DNA from: an uncultured Clostridium sp.
GTDB lineage: Bacteria; Bacillota; Clostridia; TANB77; CAG-465
Length of the DNA: 46,582 nt
NCBI GenBank assembly: GCA_964481385.1
Contig: CAYZTN010000002.1
Coordinates: 1 to 46,582, forward strand
Direction of reading: 5' to 3'
The first letter of the stretch is position 1; the number at the start of each line of letters is the position of its first letter. A program made the position numbers and the translations under genes. Positions 5,499-42,332 of the stretch are shown piece after piece. Below the pieces are notes generated by a model. The model worked only from the letters and a program-made list of their open reading frames with translations, was not told the origin of the DNA and made no database searches.

Positions 5499-6494
5499 AT
5501 GCCTAAGGTAAGTATAATTGTTCCTGTGTATAACACAGAAAAATATTTAAAGAAATGCTTAGATAGCTTGCTTAATCAAACACTGGAAGATATAGAAATA
5601 ATAATTGTAAACGATGGCTCAACAGATAATTCACAGGAAGTAATTGACGAGTATACAAAAAAAGATACTAGAGTAAAATCATATGTTAAACAAAATGGCG
5701 GTCAAGGCTCTGCTAGAAATTTAGGACTTGAAAAAGCTACTGGAGAATATATTGGTTACATAGACAGTGACGACTTTATAGATATTCATATGTACGAAGA
5801 TATGTATAACAAGGCTGTCACAGACAATAGTGATATTGTAAATGTTGGCTATTATATTTATTCAGAAACAGGAAATGTAACAAAAGAACAGGTGTTTAAG
5901 AGAGGTGTAACAACAAATATTAGCAATACACCAGAAGTTTTATTCGATAACACTGCAGTTACAAATAAACTATTTAAGGCAAGTCTATTAAAAAACAACG
6001 ATATACAATTTAGAGTTAAAAAATGGTATGAAGATTTTGACTTTGTTATAAAAACAATATGTTTTGCCTCAAATATTTCTGTTATAGAAAAACCGTATTA
6101 TTATTATTTACAACGTACTGGTTCTACTATGAACAATTCAAATATATCTAGAAACCTTGAAATACTAGAAGCAATGGACGAGATAATAGTCTTTTGTAAG
6201 GAACAAGGTATATATGATAAGTTTGCAGAACAGTTAGAGTTTTTGGCAGTACAACATATATACTTACCTACAAATGTACGTATAATACGAGCAAATGTTA
6301 GCTGGGCAGAAAAGATAAAAGTAATAGACAAAATAAACAAATATATGGACGAACATTTCAAGAACTATAAAAACAACAAGTATAACAACGTAATACTTAC
6401 CAAAAAGAAACAAACTATATTAAAAATGATTAAACTTAAAGCATATTGGATAGTATGGTTATGTTTTAAAGTTCGAGATGTTTTTAGAAGATGA
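5499..6494 (+). CDS. family 2 glycosyltransferase
   Basis: VSIIVPVYNTEKYLKKCLDSLLNQTLEDIEIIIVNDGSTDNS...IDSDD. ATG 5499 is preceded by GGGGGAA, and the track start at 5487 is a TTG inside that SD. Confidence 0.8.
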   Translation: MPKVSIIVPVYNTEKYLKKCLDSLLNQTLEDIEIIIVNDGSTDNSQEVIDEYTKKDTRVKSYVKQNGGQGSARNLGLEKATGEYIGYIDSDDFIDIHMYEDMYNKAVTDNSDIVNVGYYIYSETGNVTKEQVFKRGVTTNISNTPEVLFDNTAVTNKLFKASLLKNNDIQFRVKKWYEDFDFVIKTICFASNISVIEKPYYYYLQRTGSTMNNSNISRNLEILEAMDEIIVFCKEQGIYDKFAEQLEFLAVQHIYLPTNVRIIRANVSWAEKIKVIDKINKYMDEHFKNYKNNKYNNVILTKKKQTILKMIKLKAYWIVWLCFKVRDVFRR

Positions 6495-35677: not shown

Positions 35678-36067
35678 TTATCTTTCTGTCTGCTTTAAAT
35701 ACTTCAATATACTTTGGACATCAGCTTTATCTTTTGGTTTATCACTTTTAATTTTTGAATTTAAAATTTGCTCTAGCTTTTGCACTTGATATCCTTGAAG
35801 CACATCATATTCAAATGGATACTTACCACTAACTACTACTTCAACCAAGTCACTAATGTGATAAAAACCACATTCATTTTTATCTTCCTCTTTTAAATTA
35901 TACTTTACACGTAACTTTTCAAATAGCTCAGGCTTTACACACAGGTCTAAATCGTTCGCTCTGTCTCTTAGTCCATATAACACTAAACAACCACTAGACA
36001 GAATATAATATTCGGTAGTTGGTAAGTCTAGATCTTGTAATAATTTAATTACTTCTTGTTTATTCAT
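35678..36067 (-). CDS. small nucleotidyltransferase-fold-like protein (tentative)
   Basis: SSGCLVLYGLRDRANDLDLCV resembles the G-x-x-x-G...D-x-D NTase motif. The protein is 129 aa and has a good SD. Confidence 0.35.
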   Translation of the reverse strand: MNKQEVIKLLQDLDLPTTEYYILSSGCLVLYGLRDRANDLDLCVKPELFEKLRVKYNLKEEDKNECGFYHISDLVEVVVSGKYPFEYDVLQGYQVQKLEQILNSKIKSDKPKDKADVQSILKYLKQTER

Positions 36068-36172
36068 TTACTTTTCTCCTCACAATAATTTTACAACGCT
36101 TTATATAAAATAATAATCAAAAGTTCATATAAAGTAAAGCAGCATAGATTTTTGTCTACACTGCTTTCCAGA
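36068..36172 (-). repeat. terminator-promoter module, copy 2 (homologous to 36836-36928)
   Basis: AAGCAGCATAGATTTTTGTCTACACTGCTT hairpin plus TTTACAACGCTTTATATAAAATA. It is roughly 80% identical by eye to the copy between paralogs 1 and 2. Confidence 0.6.
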
Positions 36173-36499
36173 TTATAAAGTGTTTTCGTCAAATCTTTCC
36201 CAGGCCCAAATTTCAACAGTTTCAAGATACTCATTAGATATATTTGCTTTATATAACCTGGCTTTTGGCTCGCCTTCTTCCAAGCACTTTGTGTTTAGAA
36301 ACTTTAATACAGCCTCTGTTGTTATACAATAGTCTATATATCCAGTTTCCTTATTTAAAACCTTGTATTTTGCTCCAGCTGAGTCAGTTTCAACCCACAT
36401 ATCTATATCTTCCATTAGATAATTAAATGCTTCTGCCATTCTAGGCGAACATTCAATTAAGTCCATATGCGTTTCAAATTCCAATAAAACTTTTCTCAT
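36173..36499 (-). CDS. small cytoplasmic protein, paralog 3 of a three-member tandem family
   Basis: Shared motifs DLIECSPRMAEAF, W.ETD.AGAKY, LKFLNTKCLEEGEPKARLYKANIS. SD GAGAGG. It lies 24 bp after paralog 2. Confidence 0.6.
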   Translation of the reverse strand: MRKVLLEFETHMDLIECSPRMAEAFNYLMEDIDMWVETDSAGAKYKVLNKETGYIDYCITTEAVLKFLNTKCLEEGEPKARLYKANISNEYLETVEIWAWERFDENTL

Positions 36500-36523
36500 T
36501 TCTAGCTACCTCTCTAAATTTTC

Positions 36524-36820
36524 TTAAAACTCTGATACATTATCTACCCTAACATGTTTAGATACATTTCCTTTATATAATCTAGCTTTCGCTTCTCCTT
36601 CTCGTAGACATTTAGTATTTAAGTACTTTAACACAACATCTGTATTTATCCAATGTCCAACAGCTCCACTTCCATCTATTAGTCTATATTCCGCTCCATC
36701 TGGTTCATTTTCTATCCAGCTATATATTCCACCTATAATATTATCAAAATTTTCAGCAATTCTATCTGGGCACTCTATTAAATCACAACGTTCACTAAAT
36801 ATTACCAATACTTTTTTCAT
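36524..36820 (-). CDS. small cytoplasmic protein, paralog 2
   Basis: About 51/98 positions are identical to paralog 1 by hand alignment. ATG 36820 (MKKVLVIF) follows GGAGG. Confidence 0.6.
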   Translation of the reverse strand: MKKVLVIFSERCDLIECPDRIAENFDNIIGGIYSWIENEPDGAEYRLIDGSGAVGHWINTDVVLKYLNTKCLREGEAKARLYKGNVSKHVRVDNVSEF

Positions 36821-36835
36821 CATTCCCTCCATCAC

Positions 36836-36928
36836 AACAATATTTTACAACAATTTATATAAAATATCAATTGAAAAGCTTATATATAGTTAAGCAGCAT
36901 AGATTTTTATCTACACTGCTTTTTTGTT
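36836..36928 (-). repeat. terminator-promoter module, copy 1, including promoter TTGATA-17 bp-TAAAAT (36870-36842, minus strand)
   Basis: AAGCAGCATAGATTTTTATCTACACTGCTT hairpin, followed on the minus strand by the promoter of paralog 2. Confidence 0.55.
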
Positions 36929-37225
36929 TTAGAATTCTACTCGACTATCTGCACGAGTGTGTTTGGATACATTCGCTTTATACAATTTTGCTTCGGGCTC
37001 GCCAGATTTCAAATGTTTTGAATTTAAGTATTTTAGTATAGACTCTGTACTTTCTATACAACCCATTTCTCCATCCCCTAAATCGACTAGATATTCAGCT
37101 CCAGCTGGGTCAGTTTTTATCCAATTACGTAATCCACCTATTATGTTTCTAAAATCATCTGCAATTCTATCTGAACATTCGATTAAATCATTAGCTATAT
37201 CATAGCACAACAATATTCTTTTCAT
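36929..37225 (-). CDS. small cytoplasmic protein, paralog 1
   Basis: 98 aa: MKRILLCYDIANDLIECSDRIADDF...LKYLNSKHLKSGEPEAKLYKANVSKH. SD GGAGGAA. Confidence 0.6.
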   Translation of the reverse strand: MKRILLCYDIANDLIECSDRIADDFRNIIGGLRNWIKTDPAGAEYLVDLGDGEMGCIESTESILKYLNSKHLKSGEPEAKLYKANVSKHTRADSRVEF

Positions 37226-37252
37226 TTTTTAATTCCTCCATACCACTCATAT

Positions 37253-37280
37253 ATTATATACCATTTAACTAAAAAGTCAA
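37253..37280 (-). promoter_or_regulatory. promoter of paralog 1, TTGACT-16 bp-TATAAT
   Basis: On the minus strand, TTGACT lies at 37280-37275 and TATAAT at 37258-37253. It sits between the left inverted repeat and the gene. Confidence 0.5.
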
Positions 37281-37288
37281 TATTCCTA

Positions 37289-37315
37289 GGCTAAGGCGCA
37301 GGATAAAATCACAAA
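37289..37315. repeat. left inverted repeat GGCTAAGGCGCAGGATAAAATCACAAA
   Basis: Its reverse complement matches 37658-37674 (17/17) and then 37698-37706 (9/10) on the right side. Confidence 0.75.
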
Positions 37316-37657
37316 GATCAATTTTAAGAGTCATGAGTTTACATAATCTTTGTGTATCGCTATATAGCTCTTCCAATGTAGTTAAAAAATAATTTCCAAA
37401 GTTAGTATGATAATGTTAAAATAATTATGTAGGCTTTATGACATTTTTATTTTAGCATTATCAGCGCAGCTTTCTAATAACATTTAAATTTTTTTGATAT
37501 TGTTATAAAACTCTGTTTTCAGCTTCTTTAAACATCATATTTGGCATGCTTATTTTTTTGGGGGATTCATTAAATTATGTCAATTTCGCCTTAAAAATTT
37601 CCAATCATTTCACAGTCCATTTCAAAGTTATGTTACCTAACGTCCTTCAAAACCTAG

Positions 37658-37706
37658 TTTTGTGATTTTATCCTGGCTAAGGCGAGAGCGTTTGTTCTCG
37701 CCTTAG
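37658..37706. repeat. right inverted repeat, interrupted by 23 bp that form a 12-bp GC-rich hairpin
   Basis: TTTGTGATTTTATCCTG + GCTAAGGCGAGAGCGTTTGTTCT + CGCCTTAGC. The local stem pairs GCTAAGGCGAGA with TCTCGCCTTAGC. Confidence 0.75.
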
Positions 37707-37719
37707 CAATGTAGTTTAT

Positions 37720-38556
37720 TTAATAATACCAACAATGTGCTCCTGTATGGCTATATGTTCCGTCTGAGTAATACCTTTTAACTGCATGATAATGCGGAAA
37801 ATAACCATCATCTACACTACCGTGCCAACCCCATTCAGCATAGCCTATTGGGCTAGCACTTTTACAAACCGCTTTTGCGCGATGCTTACTCGTAGCCCAC
37901 ACACTTTTGCCCCAACGTATTCTTCTTACCGCGGAATCATATGATAATCCAATTCCAGCAGCTATGTACACATCATTTCCGATAAGGTAGGCTGGAAAAT
38001 ACTCTGCATTATTGGCTTTTCGTTTAAGCGTAGTTGCTAACTTTGAAGCTGCATAACACACAACACCAGAAATACACGCTTTGCCAGCCCAAATAAGTGA
38101 ATAATACAAAGCACTTGAAATTACAACAGTCGAACCAGCAATCGTAATAGCAAATTGTGGTGTAACTGCCTCAGCTGTGTTTACTTCGCCTTCAAGTGTT
38201 TCATTTTCTTTTTCCACTTTCCAGCTAGCAATGCCATCAGTATTTACATCTGTTATTTCAAGCAAATATTCGCCATCATCATCAATATAGAAAATTTCGC
38301 CTGTATCGTCATCATACTTCAGCTCAAATTTTCCATATTCTCCGTCAACAACGTAAGATATTGTGCTATCTTCGTTTTGTAAAACTTCCATTCCTATTTC
38401 TTCTCTTAAGGCTTTAGAAGTTTCATCTTCTTGCTCTAAGAAATCCGGAGTCTCTACAGCATTCTGCTTCTCAGATACACAAGAAGATAAGAACAGCATA
38501 CAAATAACAAGCATGAGACTGATTGCCCGAGTTATAAAAGAACGATTCTTTTGCAT
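37720..38556 (-). CDS. putative lipoprotein with acidic N-terminal region, central hydrophobic segment and His/Trp/Tyr-rich C-terminal domain
   Basis: Signal peptide plus lipobox (LMLVICMLFLSSC). The C-terminus reads YAEWGWHGSVDDGYFPHYHAVKRYYSDGTYSHTGAHCWYY. ATG 38556 lies 8 nt after AAAGGAG. Confidence 0.6.
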   Translation of the reverse strand: MQKNRSFITRAISLMLVICMLFLSSCVSEKQNAVETPDFLEQEDETSKALREEIGMEVLQNEDSTISYVVDGEYGKFELKYDDDTGEIFYIDDDGEYLLEITDVNTDGIASWKVEKENETLEGEVNTAEAVTPQFAITIAGSTVVISSALYYSLIWAGKACISGVVCYAASKLATTLKRKANNAEYFPAYLIGNDVYIAAGIGLSYDSAVRRIRWGKSVWATSKHRAKAVCKSASPIGYAEWGWHGSVDDGYFPHYHAVKRYYSDGTYSHTGAHCWYY

Positions 38557-38585
38557 AAGTTTTGCTCCTTTCAAGAACATGTGAA

Positions 38586-39410
38586 TTAATTTGTGGATAT
38601 TGTTTGTTTGACTATTCGTATTAGTTCTGCATTGGTATTACCCCTTTCATATTTTTGATTATATGAATTAGCAATTATTCCTGTCACACATGGTGCTAAA
38701 AAAGAATTGCCATCATATTCTTCAGTTCCTATTTTTACGGAATTAATACTCTTTAATATGATACGAGTATCTTCATTGTACAATTCTATATTATCTGTTT
38801 TTCCAACGCAAATTACACCATCATACATTGATGGAAAGTCTACTTCTACATTAGAATTGTTAATTGAAGAAACTATTATCGCCCCATCAGAAATTAAGGC
38901 GTTTATCATGCACTCAACATTCTCACTATAAATGCCAAATGACAAACTCATATTTATTATGTCTATTTCATTGCCTTTACACCACTCCAGTGCTTTATAT
39001 ACAGCCTCGGTTGAAGCTAAACCATATTTGTTTATAACTTTGAGCATATATACTTCTGCATTTGGTGAAATACCATAGTTTGGGTTGGATATAATATCTA
39101 AAACAATACTTCCATGTCCTATGTAATCAGCAGTATCTTCATCATTAGAAAAATTTATCGCATTTGATACAATTTGCCCTTTTGATATTCCACTATCAAT
39201 TACAGCTATTTTAACATTATCACCATAACCGTATTTATTATGAACTGTTCCAGATAGTTTTGATATATCAATAACATTCATATTCTGACTCAAAAACATC
39301 CTACAAATTATAACCACTAATATCACTGCTAAAGCAACCATACCTAAAAACTTAAATATACTTTTTTTCACAATGCTTTCTCCATTCTTTAAAATTTTAA
39401 AGACTCTCAT
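38586..39410 (-). CDS. small membrane-anchored subtilisin-like (S8) serine peptidase
   Basis: Catalytic-triad contexts are AVIDSGIS (Asp), GHGSIVLD (His) and GNSFLAPCVTG (Ser), with an N-terminal TM helix. No SD is visible before the ATG. Confidence 0.7.
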   Translation of the reverse strand: MRVFKILKNGESIVKKSIFKFLGMVALAVILVVIICRMFLSQNMNVIDISKLSGTVHNKYGYGDNVKIAVIDSGISKGQIVSNAINFSNDEDTADYIGHGSIVLDIISNPNYGISPNAEVYMLKVINKYGLASTEAVYKALEWCKGNEIDIINMSLSFGIYSENVECMINALISDGAIIVSSINNSNVEVDFPSMYDGVICVGKTDNIELYNEDTRIILKSINSVKIGTEEYDGNSFLAPCVTGIIANSYNQKYERGNTNAELIRIVKQTISTN

Positions 39411-39423
39411 TTCATTTTGGTAA

Positions 39424-39452
39424 ATTATACCATCATTCTCAGATTATGTCAA
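39424..39452 (-). promoter_or_regulatory. full-consensus sigma-A promoter TTGACA-17 bp-TATAAT with TGn, ~14 nt upstream of the S8 ATG
   Basis: On the minus strand, TTGACA lies at 39452-39447 and TATAAT at 39429-39424, preceded by TGG. Confidence 0.65.
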
Positions 39453-39473
39453 CAACCTTTCAATAATTATAGT

Positions 39474-39516
39474 AAAAAACAAGAGAAGCCTTACCCTGCA
39501 GACTTATCTTCTCTTG
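39474..39516 (-). terminator. rho-independent terminator of ileS
   Basis: A 9-bp stem CAAGAGAAG / CTTCTCTTG with a 19-nt loop, followed on the minus strand by TTTTTT. Confidence 0.6.
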
Positions 39517-39533: not shown

Positions 39534-42332
39534 TTATTTACTCTTGTTATTTTCCAAAGCCTTAATACACGCTGGACAAATTGTTGGATGAGTTTCGTTT
39601 TCTCCAATGTGTTCACTATATTTCCAACATCTCTCGCATTTTGCTCCATCGGCTTTTGCTACAGATATGTTTCTTTCTCCTTCACGTACTTCCACTTTAG
39701 ACACTATAAGTACCATTGCAAGAGTATCTGCCATATCTTTAAACATGTTGTACTCATTGCCATTTAAAGTAAATATTACTTTTGCGTCTAATGGGTGACC
39801 TACTAGTTTTTCAGCTCTTGCTTTTTCTAGTGCAAGTAATGCTTCTTCTCTTAGTGCATATATTTTATCCCATTTTTCTACAAGGTCCTTATTCTCGTAC
39901 ATAGCATTTGCCTTTGGCATATCTGCAAGAAGTATAGACTCTGTTTTGTCTTTTTCAGAAAGGTTAATATAGCTCCAGATTTCTTCTGCTGTAAATGAAA
40001 GTATTGGTGCTAGTATCTTTGTCATTGTAGTTAATACATCGTACATTGTAGACTGAATGCTTTTTCTTAAAGTATTTTTAGCGTCTAATGTATATAATCT
40101 ATCTTTTACAACGTCAAGATATTTTGAGCTTAAATCTGATGTACAGAATCTATGTATTGCATTAAATACTGCATGGAATTCATATTTATCATAAGAAGCA
40201 ATACTATCTTTTACAAGCTCGTTTGTTTTGTACATGATGTATTTATCTAATTCGTCACGGCCCGCATACTCTACATATTCTGTATCTGCATTAAAGTCTG
40301 AAAGGTTACCTAGCATAAATCTTGCTGTATTTCTTATCTTTTTGTACACTTCTGCTATTCCTTTTATAATGTCCTTAGATACTCTAACATCTGCGTGGTA
40401 GTCTGAAGATACTGTCCAAAGTCTTAATATATCTGCTCCGAACTCATTACAAACGTCCATTGGGTCTACACCATTACCAAGGCTCTTTGACATTTTTCTC
40501 TTATCTTCGTCTATTAAAAAGCCATGTGTAACATTTTCTCTATATGGTGCTACACCTTTTACTGCAACTGAAGTTAGAAGTGATGATTGGAACCATCCTC
40601 TATATTGGTCATTTCCCTCTAAGTACAAATCTGCTGGCCAGCTTAAGCCATATTTTGAAGTACCACATACTGCAAAGTGACTTGAACCTGAATCAAACCA
40701 TACGTCCATTATATCTTTTTCTTTTACAAGATGTGTACAACCACATTCGCACTTAAAGTCAGAAGTTCCAAGTAATTCTTCTGGTGACAATTCATACCAA
40801 GCATTTGTGCCTTTTTCTTTAAACACTTCAATTAGCTTAGCTATTGTTTCGTCAGTTATATATTCCTTGCCACAGTCTTCACAGTAGAATATTGGAATTG
40901 GAACGCCCCATGTTCTTTGACGAGATATACACCAGTCACCTCTGTCTTTTAACATGTTAAGCATTCTTTCTTCGCCCCAAGCTGGATACCACTTAACTGT
41001 TTTTACAGCTTCTAATGCATTCTGTCTAAACTCTTTTACAGATGCAAACCATTGAGTTGTAGCTCTGTATATTACTGGTTTATGACATCTCCAGCAATGT
41101 GGATATGGGTGAGTTAGTTCTTTTTTTGCAAGAAGTGCATTAAGTTCGCCCAAACGTTCAATTACTCTTTTATTTGCCTCAGTGTATTTCATACCTTCTA
41201 GCTCTCCAGCCTCACTTGTCATATATCCTTTATCGTCTACTGGACAAATTATTTCTATATCTCCATAACGTTTGCATGCAAGATAGTCTTCATGTCCATG
41301 CCCTGGAGCTGTATGTACAAGTCCTGTACCAGCGTCAAGTGTAACTAGCAAGTCGTTATCTGAACCAAGTATTACACGAGAAGTTTTTGGAAGCATTGGA
41401 TGTTCTAGCAATATACCTTCAAATTCATTTCCTTTAAATATTTTATCTAGCACAGTGTACTCAGTAATCTCTGCTTCTTTCATAACAGAATCTACAAGTT
41501 CAGCTGCTATTACATAGTACTCGTCATTTACACTTACTACTAAATACTCAAAATCTGGATTTACTGTAACAGCTTGGTTACCAGGCATTGTCCATGGAGT
41601 TGTTGTCCATATTACGAAGTATAACTTGGACATATCTACTACGCCATCAAACACACCTTTATCTTCTTTTACTTTAAACTTTACAAATATGCTTGTAGCA
41701 GTATCATCCTCATATTCAATTTCTGCTTCTGCTAAAGCTGTTCTACAGTCTTCACACCAATATACTGGCTTTAAATCACGGTAGATGTAACCTTTTTTAT
41801 ACATATCTGCAAATACTTTAATTTGCTCTACTTCAAACTCTGGGTCAAGTGTTACATATCTATTTTCAAAGTCTCCCATAATACCTAAACGTTTGAAGCC
41901 TTTCTTTTGAAGCTCTACTTGCTCTAATGCATACTCCATACATTTTCTTCTAAACTCAGGAATTCCTACCATGTCTTTGCTAATTTTTAATACTTGTTCT
42001 ACTTTTTTCTCTATTGGAAGTCCATGTGTATCCCAACCAGGAATATATGGTGCATAAAAACCTGACATGTTTTTGTATTTTATAATTATATCTTTTAGTA
42101 TTTTGTTAAACGCATGTCCCAAATGTATATTACCATTTGCATAAGGTGGTCCGTCATGTAACATAAATGACTTACCAGTTTCTTTGTTTTTTTCTACCAT
42201 TTTAGAATATATATTATTGTTATATAGCGTCTCTAGTATTTGAGGCTCTTTTTCAGGTAACCCTCCACGCATTGGGAAATCTGTTTTGGGTAGATTTAAT
42301 GTTTCAGAATAATTCTTTTTCTCTGCTTCCAT
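39534..42332 (-). CDS. ileS: isoleucine--tRNA ligase
   Basis: PYANGNIHLGH (HIGH), KMSKSLGN, CP1 editing domain, and the C-terminal zinc motif CERCW...CPAC. 932 aa. Confidence 0.97.
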   Translation of the reverse strand: MEAEKKNYSETLNLPKTDFPMRGGLPEKEPQILETLYNNNIYSKMVEKNKETGKSFMLHDGPPYANGNIHLGHAFNKILKDIIIKYKNMSGFYAPYIPGWDTHGLPIEKKVEQVLKISKDMVGIPEFRRKCMEYALEQVELQKKGFKRLGIMGDFENRYVTLDPEFEVEQIKVFADMYKKGYIYRDLKPVYWCEDCRTALAEAEIEYEDDTATSIFVKFKVKEDKGVFDGVVDMSKLYFVIWTTTPWTMPGNQAVTVNPDFEYLVVSVNDEYYVIAAELVDSVMKEAEITEYTVLDKIFKGNEFEGILLEHPMLPKTSRVILGSDNDLLVTLDAGTGLVHTAPGHGHEDYLACKRYGDIEIICPVDDKGYMTSEAGELEGMKYTEANKRVIERLGELNALLAKKELTHPYPHCWRCHKPVIYRATTQWFASVKEFRQNALEAVKTVKWYPAWGEERMLNMLKDRGDWCISRQRTWGVPIPIFYCEDCGKEYITDETIAKLIEVFKEKGTNAWYELSPEELLGTSDFKCECGCTHLVKEKDIMDVWFDSGSSHFAVCGTSKYGLSWPADLYLEGNDQYRGWFQSSLLTSVAVKGVAPYRENVTHGFLIDEDKRKMSKSLGNGVDPMDVCNEFGADILRLWTVSSDYHADVRVSKDIIKGIAEVYKKIRNTARFMLGNLSDFNADTEYVEYAGRDELDKYIMYKTNELVKDSIASYDKYEFHAVFNAIHRFCTSDLSSKYLDVVKDRLYTLDAKNTLRKSIQSTMYDVLTTMTKILAPILSFTAEEIWSYINLSEKDKTESILLADMPKANAMYENKDLVEKWDKIYALREEALLALEKARAEKLVGHPLDAKVIFTLNGNEYNMFKDMADTLAMVLIVSKVEVREGERNISVAKADGAKCERCWKYSEHIGENETHPTICPACIKALENNKSK

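Follow-up and report, generated by a model that had tools for sequence, protein, structure and literature searches.

A predicted Sec-exported polymorphic toxin locus of the S8-PTS/ABP type in an uncultured Clostridium sp.

The DNA analysed here (the window) is a stretch of 46,582 nucleotides (nt) from an uncultured Clostridium sp. (GenBank assembly GCA_964481385.1, contig CAYZTN010000002.1). It carries a gene for an S8 peptidase, a gene for an exported precursor protein designated X, and an array of three small paralogous genes. By analogy with characterised systems, the locus very probably encodes a three-component, Sec-exported polymorphic toxin system of the S8-PTS/ABP type, in which X would be the toxin precursor and the paralogs immunity genes. 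The system itself is already published under both names, and the window copy is classed as a further member of it. The assignment draws on the linkage of the peptidase and precursor genes, the domain anatomy of X, the exchange of its C-terminal part, the covariation of that part with the first downstream paralog, the occurrence of orphan cassettes, and the use of the same C-terminal domain by RHS proteins, all of which were observed in this analysis.

The peptidase and the toxin precursor

All genes of the module lie on the minus strand of the window. Their features are listed below (aa, amino acids; ORF, open reading frame; pI, isoelectric point; GRAVY, grand average of hydropathy); toxin types A and B are described in the next section.

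38586..39371, minus strand: AbpP-like peptidase of the S8 (subtilisin) family, 261 aa with GTG 39371 as the start; the full ORF, opening at ATG 39410, is 38586-39410 (274 aa).
38479..38556, minus strand: X residues 1-26, Sec signal with lipobox L-S-S-C; basic n-region and hydrophobic core, from sequence and alignment.
38155..38478, minus strand: X residues 27-134, acidic beta-sheet domain (BetaH-like), the "constant" part of the predicted toxin; charge -25, pI 4.05.
38020..38154, minus strand: X residues 135-179, hydrophobic helix segment of 45 aa ending in basic LKRK; GRAVY 1.04, pI 9.5.
37720..38019, minus strand: X residues 180-278 and stop, predicted cationic toxin domain (C-domain) with HxH...H; pI 9.1, from sequence and model.
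36929..37225, minus strand: paralog 1, 98 aa; predicted cognate immunity protein for the type-A C-domain.
36524..36820, minus strand: paralog 2, 98 aa from ATG 36820 (ORF to GTG 36835); putative orphan immunity gene matching the type-B toxin.
36173..36499, minus strand: paralog 3, 108 aa; putative orphan immunity gene of a third type, family profile E 7e-47.

The peptidase ORF was matched by Pfam Peptidase_S8 (PF00082) over residues 63-262 at 1.6e-15, its sole Pfam match; no I9 propeptide domain was found in that search. In the numbering of the 274-aa frame, the triad D72/H99/S236 and an oxyanion-type N185 are invariant in seven partner peptidases, and the protein is alignable to Savinase. The hydrophobic stretch at its N-terminus was read from the sequence as a signal peptide or membrane anchor.

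The gene for X (37720-38556, 278 aa) starts 29 nt past the S8 stop codon and is preceded by an AAGGAG ribosome-binding site. The first-pass annotation of the window, made from the letters alone, had proposed a small membrane-anchored S8 peptidase, followed after 29 nt by a lipoprotein gene with a Shine-Dalgarno sequence, a lipobox, an acidic half and a hydrophobic segment. The Pfam match and intact triad bear out the S8 assignment, and every one of the features named for the lipoprotein gene was found. The lipobox Cys is retained in nine of ten close homologs of X, and across the wider family 21 of 89 full-length members show a loose lipobox-like pattern, which may be a chance match.

In the AlphaFold model of X, seven strands at residues 56-126 are followed by helices, with a predicted local distance difference test (pLDDT) score of ~50-77 in the sheet and <50 in the helix segment. 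ColN-RBD and TipC were absent among the 50 Foldseek matches listed for the whole-X model. The most hydrophobic 19-aa stretch of the helix segment has a transmembrane-like GRAVY across the family (median 2.18; at least 1.6 in 82 of 89 members), and helix and C-domain together are basic (pI 9.3, net charge +8), as are the C-domains of the family (median pI 9.87). The segment is predicted to be a membrane-entry element freed together with the toxin domain. X matched no LXG or WXG family in Pfam or NCBIfam, and the gene calls for the regions flanking related loci included no type VII secretion system (T7SS) genes; RHS repeats (Pfam) and the DPxG motif were likewise not found in X. Searches of Pfam, NCBIfam, PADLOC, PHROGs and the PDB (sequence and profile) gave no match for X, its C-domain or the paralogs.

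Close relatives of X form 10 clusters among 5.8 billion proteins, all of them full-length. An exhaustive profile search recovered 268 representative relatives of X or its C-domain, most of 260-290 aa and of the same layout. A word-indexed homolog search with a diverse C-domain alignment returned one protein, and a related-locus search with the close X alignment returned only the already-known 'MAG: Clostridia bacterium' (MAG, metagenome-assembled genome) and a Planctomycetaceae fragment.

Linkage to the peptidase was counted over loci with a full-length, non-RHS X and available upstream sequence, which represent at least six unrelated neighbourhoods and X identities down to ~25%. An S8 gene lies directly upstream of X in the window; in sister strains at the same ileS site (L002-5, L026); in a Clostridia MAG at an MBOAT/DHHW site (L001); at a ComEC/POR site (L006); on a short contig packed with paralogs (L024); in the distant relatives L017, L019 and L021; and on a plasmid of Carnobacterium inhibens (L029), where RefSeq names the neighbour 'S8 family serine peptidase'. 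The same RefSeq name is given to the neighbour on a Macrococcoides caseolyticum plasmid (L030), which lies upstream of X on the opposite strand. The sole exception is plasmid pCS1-6 of Paraclostridium sordellii (L028), in which a full-length X relative annotated as hypothetical (record 63860-64639; 25% identity, 97% coverage) had no S8 gene annotated, and none was detected by a six-frame S8 profile scan of the 6.8-kb stretch. The survey of co-occurrence suggested with the first-pass annotation has found S8, X and downstream genes linked at chromosomal sites unrelated to one another, as well as on plasmids from cultured Bacilli.

Exchange of the C-terminal part, immunity genes and RHS carriers

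X was split at the junction preceding the hydrophobic segment, and the parts were compared locus by locus with the following identities.

Window and L002 / L026: N-domain 88-89%, helix 56-58%, C-domain 58-59%, first paralog 57-58%.
Window and L024: N-domain 77%, helix 96%, C-domain 98%, first paralog 95%.
L002 and L026: N-domain 92%, helix 91%, C-domain 85%, first paralog 82%.

These values separate at least two toxin types that share a scaffold: the window and L024 have type A, L002 and L026 have type B, and the helix segment is exchanged jointly with the C-domain. A sharp identity break between the N- and C-terminal parts and covariation of the C-domain with a paralog are hallmarks of conflict systems. 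Since the first downstream paralog changes with the type of C-domain, paralog 1 is predicted to be the cognate immunity gene of the window C-domain, and paralogs 2 and 3 to be orphans. Paralog 2 is closer to the cognate paralogs of type B (77-87% identity to those heading the arrays of L002 and L026) than to paralog 1 (54%); reciprocally, the third gene of L002 is a type-A paralog (88%) kept as an orphan. Paralog 3 has copies of 91-100% identity in L002, L024 and L026 and shares ~40% identity with the remaining paralog types; among the compared loci it could be paired with no cognate toxin.

The three paralogs are acidic (pI 4.5-5.3) and have no hydrophobic segment and no export signal, in agreement with their earlier description as small proteins without signal peptides. 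They matched no Pfam family, DUF4279 (FdL-Imm5) included, and did not fall in a family of other known function; membership in such a family had been named in the first-pass annotation as refuting its proposal of an effector with cognate or orphan immunity proteins. That proposal holds in substance, given the covariation of the first paralog with the C-domain and the position of the C-domain in RHS proteins described below.

Parts of the module were also found on their own. A stand-alone C-domain ORF lies between two paralogs in L001 (5898-6200), and a truncated C-domain fragment lies directly before a lone paralog in L009 (6681-6869); both are without signal, beta domain and helix. L011 and L012 have, at the chromosomal site of L001, a lone paralog (80-82% identical to that of L001) with neither S8 nor X. 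The orphan C-domain ORFs of L001 and L009 may serve as a reservoir for C-terminal replacement by recombination. A different family of cytoplasmic proteins of 140-160 aa, A6, is encoded downstream of the C-domain in L014 (an RHS locus), in the S8 loci L017 and L021, and in the plasmid locus L030; profile-profile comparison gave no link between A6 and the 98-aa paralogs. Exchange, covariation and orphan pieces of this sort are usual in polymorphic toxin-immunity systems.

In RHS proteins, the region after the DPxGH self-cleavage motif is the position of the toxin. Four of the 268 representatives (P0071, P0146, P0172 and P0197) have RHS/YD matches and end in the C-domain. In P0071, P0146 and P0172 the helix and C-domain, homologous to the corresponding segment of X, stand immediately after the motif (…NPINYVDPSGH|…). 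The unit of helix and predicted toxin that a protease would release from X is therefore also RHS cargo, which independently supports the helix as part of the delivered toxin. At L014 (6001-12094), a protein of 1136 aa with CBM96, Big_13 and YD-shell matches ends in the helix and C-domain. Behind the gene for this RHS protein come one of the A6 family, another three small ORFs and a gene for an ankyrin-repeat protein; these downstream genes may form a poly-immunity tail.

The C-domain stands within 0-8 residues of the protein end in 145 of 151 collected proteins that match its profile; of the other six, five belong to the immunity family and match at marginal E-values, and in one the match stops 16 residues before the protein end. 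H255, H257, H274 and one alanine are invariant in 62 diverse C-domains, and a fourth candidate His, at the GWHG position, is common but <60% conserved in the same alignment. Invariance of three His across so diverse a set points to catalysis or metal binding. An AlphaFold model of the C-domain built with the 62 sequences reached a pLDDT of 93.8 and a predicted template modelling score (pTM) of 0.85, with an order of strands and helices compatible with a VOC core. It places the HxH at the start of one strand and the third His just before the adjacent strand. This layout is typical of a metal site on a sheet, and on the model the three-His site probably binds metal. JAB/JAMM, HIT, 2H phosphoesterase, LAS/M23 peptidase, HNH and NlpC/P60-CHAP were considered for the HxH...H pattern and dropped, either because other residues that define these families are missing or because they would call for an immunity protein that is exported. 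The first-pass annotation had recognised no toxin family in this domain, and profile and structure searches have added neither a toxin family nor a housekeeping homolog.

Promoters, boundaries and intergenic DNA

The module is bounded and interspersed by the following features.

39534-42332: ileS, the gene upstream of the module.
39472..39516, minus strand: ileS terminator, a GC-rich hairpin with T-run read from the sequence; conserved in L002.
39424..39452, minus strand: sigma-70-type promoter of the S8/toxin operon, TTGACA-17-TGnTATAAT; 12/12 consensus match, best in the region.
37299..37675, no strand assigned: strain-specific insertion of ~380-400 bp; inverted repeats, a perfect 17-nt CAGGATAAAATCACAAA plus 48 nt at 73%.
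37253..37280, minus strand: separate promoter of the immunity array, TTGACT-16-TATAAT; 11/12 match.
36842..36922 and 36088-36167, minus strand: repeated intergenic cassette with a terminator-like hairpin (36136-36167 in the second copy) and a promoter-like site.
35678-36067, minus strand: 129-aa gene after the paralogs, with the same intergenic cassette upstream as paralog 2.

The ileS terminator forms the upstream boundary of the module, and strains differ in the island that extends from ileS to a cysteine desulfurase-type (NifS-like) gene. The full-consensus promoter that had been noted downstream of this terminator, TTGACA-17-TATAAT with TG, was recovered. An almost leaderless S8 mRNA without a Shine-Dalgarno sequence, as proposed alongside it, is unlikely. 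The partner peptidases of L001, L006 and L017 begin at the position of window codon 14 (GTG 39371), GGAGA precedes this GTG at the usual spacing, and the gene caller picked the GTG in L002, whose aligned sequence is identical to the window from a point before the -35 hexamer as far as codon 22 of the S8 frame that begins with this GTG. A leader of ~45 nt with a ribosome-binding site is for these reasons the likelier arrangement, and the leaderless reading is probably wrong. Hexamers resembling the array promoter were seen at the equivalent place in L002.

The spacer between X and paralog 1 measures 494 bp (37226-37719) and contains inverted repeats, in agreement with the ~490-bp spacer with an inverted-repeat structure reported in the first pass. 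Its membership in the module did not stand, as the insertion that it contains is missing from the equivalent intergenic region of L002 and L001. The insertion looks like a miniature inverted-repeat element and is not part of the toxin system. It has flanking GCTAAGGCG motifs at ~37286-37707 and abuts a hairpin with a 14-bp stem. Further copies of its terminal repeat were found neither in the window nor in the fetched loci, and scanning the region and the insertion against Rfam gave no family at gathering score.

The two copies of the intergenic cassette, after paralog 1 and after paralog 3, are direct repeats of 83-90% identity, as against 63-71% for the coding DNA of the paralogs. These copies may offer recombination a handle for exchanging cassettes. 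In L002 (11954-12575), a histidine-phosphatase (His_Phos_1) gene that is split in two ORFs (116 and 92 aa) separates the second paralog from the third.

The 129-aa gene had been counted with the module as an NTase-fold-like (nucleotidyltransferase-fold-like) gene. The gene follows the paralogs in L026 and L027, but L001 and L002 lack it, which places it outside the conserved module. Its sole family match is phrog_12854 (3e-16), a phage-associated family of unknown function. By tblastn it was 28-30% identical to sequences of Ralstonia, Burkholderia, Vibrio and Yersinia phages, mostly large (~224-286 kb among the rows listed). An SG…DLD pattern in the protein resembles minimal nucleotidyltransferases; no nucleotidyltransferase family or structure was matched.

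Relation to published systems and alternative explanations

S8-PTS was described as an operon-linked S8 peptidase with a toxin and a downstream immunity gene (Li, Tan & Zhang 2022, PMC9424270) and renamed ABP, with the components AbpP, AbpT and AbpI (Colautti, Garrett & Whitney 2025, PMC12582261; review PMC13460014). Its BetaH domain was defined as an acidic, seven-stranded sheet of ~120 aa wrapping a C-terminal helix (PMC9424270). The protease cuts between this sheet and the helix (PMC12582261; Mwangi et al. 2025, bioRxiv 2025.07.24.666436). Helix and toxin together are the active species, the toxin domain alone being inactive (PMC12582261; bioRxiv 2025.07.24.666436), and killing depends on membrane potential (PMC12582261; bioRxiv 2025.07.24.666436; PMC13460014). 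AbpT toxin domains are strongly cationic, with a mean pI of 10.2 (PMC12582261). Cleavage by S8 and neutralisation by the downstream cytoplasmic protein were demonstrated experimentally (PMC9424270, PMC12582261, PMC13460014), and cleavage and killing of Gram-positive cells were reported for Staphylococcus, C. casei and Listeria systems (PMC12582261; bioRxiv 2025.07.24.666436).

The window locus shares with these systems a propeptide-less S8 gene beside a Sec-exported toxin precursor, a cytoplasmic immunity gene candidate directly downstream, a predicted acidic beta-sheet domain of ~110 aa followed by a helix and a cationic polymorphic C-terminal domain, and shuffling between N-domain and toxin domain with stable toxin-immunity pairs. 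Because gene order, peptidase, signal, predicted acidic domain, position of the helix, cationic fragment and shuffling all match, the locus is assigned to S8-PTS/ABP. It differs in several respects. The signal of X has a lipobox, which is unmentioned in the published papers on the system; the helix segment is 45 aa long and transmembrane-like as against a short amphipathic cationic helix; the host belongs to an uncultured Clostridia lineage, whereas the published range is mainly Bacillales and Actinomycetota; one predicted cognate immunity gene is accompanied by two orphans, and orphan C-domain cassettes occur; and fusions of the helix and C-domain to RHS proteins exist as well. PMC9424270, PMC12582261 and bioRxiv 2025.07.24.666436 do not use the word 'orphan', nor does the review PMC13460014 use 'orphan immunity'. 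With these features the window variant extends the known system and does not form a new kind.

Other polymorphic toxins resemble parts of the locus. RHS/WapA-type toxins of Bacillota carry the helix and C-domain unit after DPxGH, and L014 shares A6 with the S8 loci; X, however, is without RHS repeats, and its release would be by a separate S8 peptidase and not by RHS self-cleavage. Strings of non-identical paralogs downstream of a polymorphic toxin, with orphan copies matching the toxins of other strains and repeated flanking DNA that could drive recombination, are also seen in T7SS immunity arrays (EsaG/TsaI of Staphylococcus; PMC9484751) and in the orphan islets of type VI secretion system (T6SS), Rhs and contact-dependent inhibition (CDI) loci. 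Those differ in secretion route, toxin and immunity folds, and the present arrays are short, holding 2-7 copies. SitA lipoprotein toxins of myxobacteria likewise combine a lipobox-bearing polymorphic toxin with cytoplasmic immunity proteins and orphan copies, but their delivery is Gram-negative, by TraAB membrane fusion (outer-membrane exchange), they have no partner protease, and they bear no sequence relation to X.

As to the identity of the C-domain, the nearest description is that of S8-VOC1, which has a VOC core, an N-terminal extension and four conserved His on the sheet, and which pairs with ferredoxin-like (FdL) immunity proteins (Li et al. 2022, PMC9424270); its activity is listed as unknown in the 2026 review (PMC13460014). 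Both would be C-terminal domains of BetaH toxins with conserved His on a beta-sheet, and the only fold hints for the C-domain are VOC dioxygenases, one of them being 1HAN, the VOC example cited by Li et al. themselves (PMC9424270). On this likeness of description, the balance leans somewhat towards the C-domain being S8-VOC1. The Rehh DNase (bioRxiv 2026.09.22.753552) is a different, recently described histidine-rich toxin.

Several observations weigh against the assignment of the locus or of its C-domain. That X is a toxin is a prediction from sequence, for the locus and for the C-domain family alike. The BetaH assignment comes from a model of moderate confidence, and characterised AbpTs have an amphipathic cationic helix of much lower hydrophobicity than the helix segment of X. 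Foldseek searches of the PDB and BFVD with the whole-X and C-domain models gave nothing below E 0.1; the VOC dioxygenase matches of the C-domain (1han, 3vb0) were weak and not significant (E 2.5-3.4, probability at most 0.15), and the domain has three invariant His as against the four reported for S8-VOC1. In L019 the gene after X (5877-6425) encodes, in place of a soluble cytoplasmic product, a DUF4349 protein with a C-terminal membrane segment; that locus has another DUF4349 gene upstream. In L006 (5306-6151) an in-frame TAA interrupts X early in the beta domain, with S8 and the three paralogs intact; this toxin gene may be a pseudogene or a sequencing variant.

X might instead be a membrane-active bacteriocin, the hydrophobic segment of which forms pores or depolarises the membrane, with the C-domain serving only in targeting or folding and S8 acting as a lantibiotic-type maturation protease. 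The strong hydrophobicity of the segment (median best 19-aa GRAVY 2.18) and the membrane segment of the L019 downstream protein are in line with this, as is the residual membrane disruption by the freed BetaH helix suggested for a related toxin (bioRxiv 2025.07.24.666436). The immunity candidates are, however, soluble, acidic and cytoplasmic and covary with a helix and C-domain that are exchanged together, the orphan cassettes of L001 and L009 retain the C-domain without the helix, and the three His are invariant in all 62 C-domains; moreover, the enzymatic domain is required for killing in characterised ABP toxins (PMC12582261). A bacteriocin is accordingly considered unlikely. Still less likely is a housekeeping envelope system, in which S8 would mature a surface lipoprotein enzyme that serves the producing cell and the paralogs would be duplicated, unrelated regulators or chaperones. 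The neighbours ileS, the NifS-like gene and ClpP would suit such a role, the toxicity of the window C-domain is a prediction, and the domain matches no Pfam toxin family. Against this stand the varied chromosomal sites and plasmids on which the module occurs, its lack in related strains that have the paralog only, the C-domain in the toxin position of RHS proteins, the identity break within X with its covarying paralog, and the great rarity of the close X family.

That the locus is a decaying remnant, with toxin or protease or both dead and selection acting on the immunity genes only, is just as improbable as a housekeeping role. The interrupted X of L006, the lone paralogs that persist without a toxin in L011, L012 and L009, and the ~390-bp insertion between X and the paralogs in the window would fit decay. 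Yet S8 and X of the window are full-length, with the triad and all invariant residues intact, a consensus promoter and ribosome-binding sites, and the insertion lies between the operon and a separately promoted array and disrupts neither.

If the locus acts as an S8-PTS/ABP system, AbpP-like S8 and AbpT-like X would be transcribed from one strong promoter and both exported. In this clade X would probably be lipid-anchored via Cys26, its acidic beta-sheet domain shielding the hydrophobic helix segment. S8 would cut the sheet-helix linker (X residues ~126-135), giving a cationic fragment of ~144 aa (helix and C-domain) that would insert in the membrane of a neighbouring Gram-positive cell and take the C-domain into the cytoplasm. 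There the three-His site, probably metal-binding, would do the damage. In the producer, paralog 1, made from its own promoter, would bind and block the C-domain, and the orphan paralogs 2 and 3 would guard against toxin variants of sister strains. In this scheme the cleavage position, the activity of helix and toxin together, the dependence on membrane potential and the binding of the immunity protein are taken from homologous systems; lipidation of X, metal dependence and the target are points that we infer. The processing of the lipoprotein by S8, as envisaged in the first-pass annotation, would follow the cleavage published for homologous systems; the linkage of the two genes was observed here. 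It is tentatively suggested, as a doubtful possibility, that the Clostridia clade represents an ABP variant with a pro-toxin that a lipid anchor keeps on the producer surface until S8 cuts it, and with a portable cassette, shared with RHS proteins, of a self-translocating, transmembrane-like helix hairpin and a three-His metalloenzyme with an activity not yet seen among antibacterial toxins.

ABP/S8-PTS is a newly recognised means by which Gram-positive bacteria kill a wide variety of neighbours without a dedicated secretion machine. As a probable member, the window locus would widen the range of the system to Clostridia that are uncultured and have been seen in metagenome assemblies only, and would add to it arrays of orphan immunity genes and orphan toxin cassettes. 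Types A and B would provide natural toxin-immunity swap pairs for tests of specificity. The C-domain family, with 268 representatives, a confident model and no PDB fold match, is a defined target in the search for a new toxic activity.

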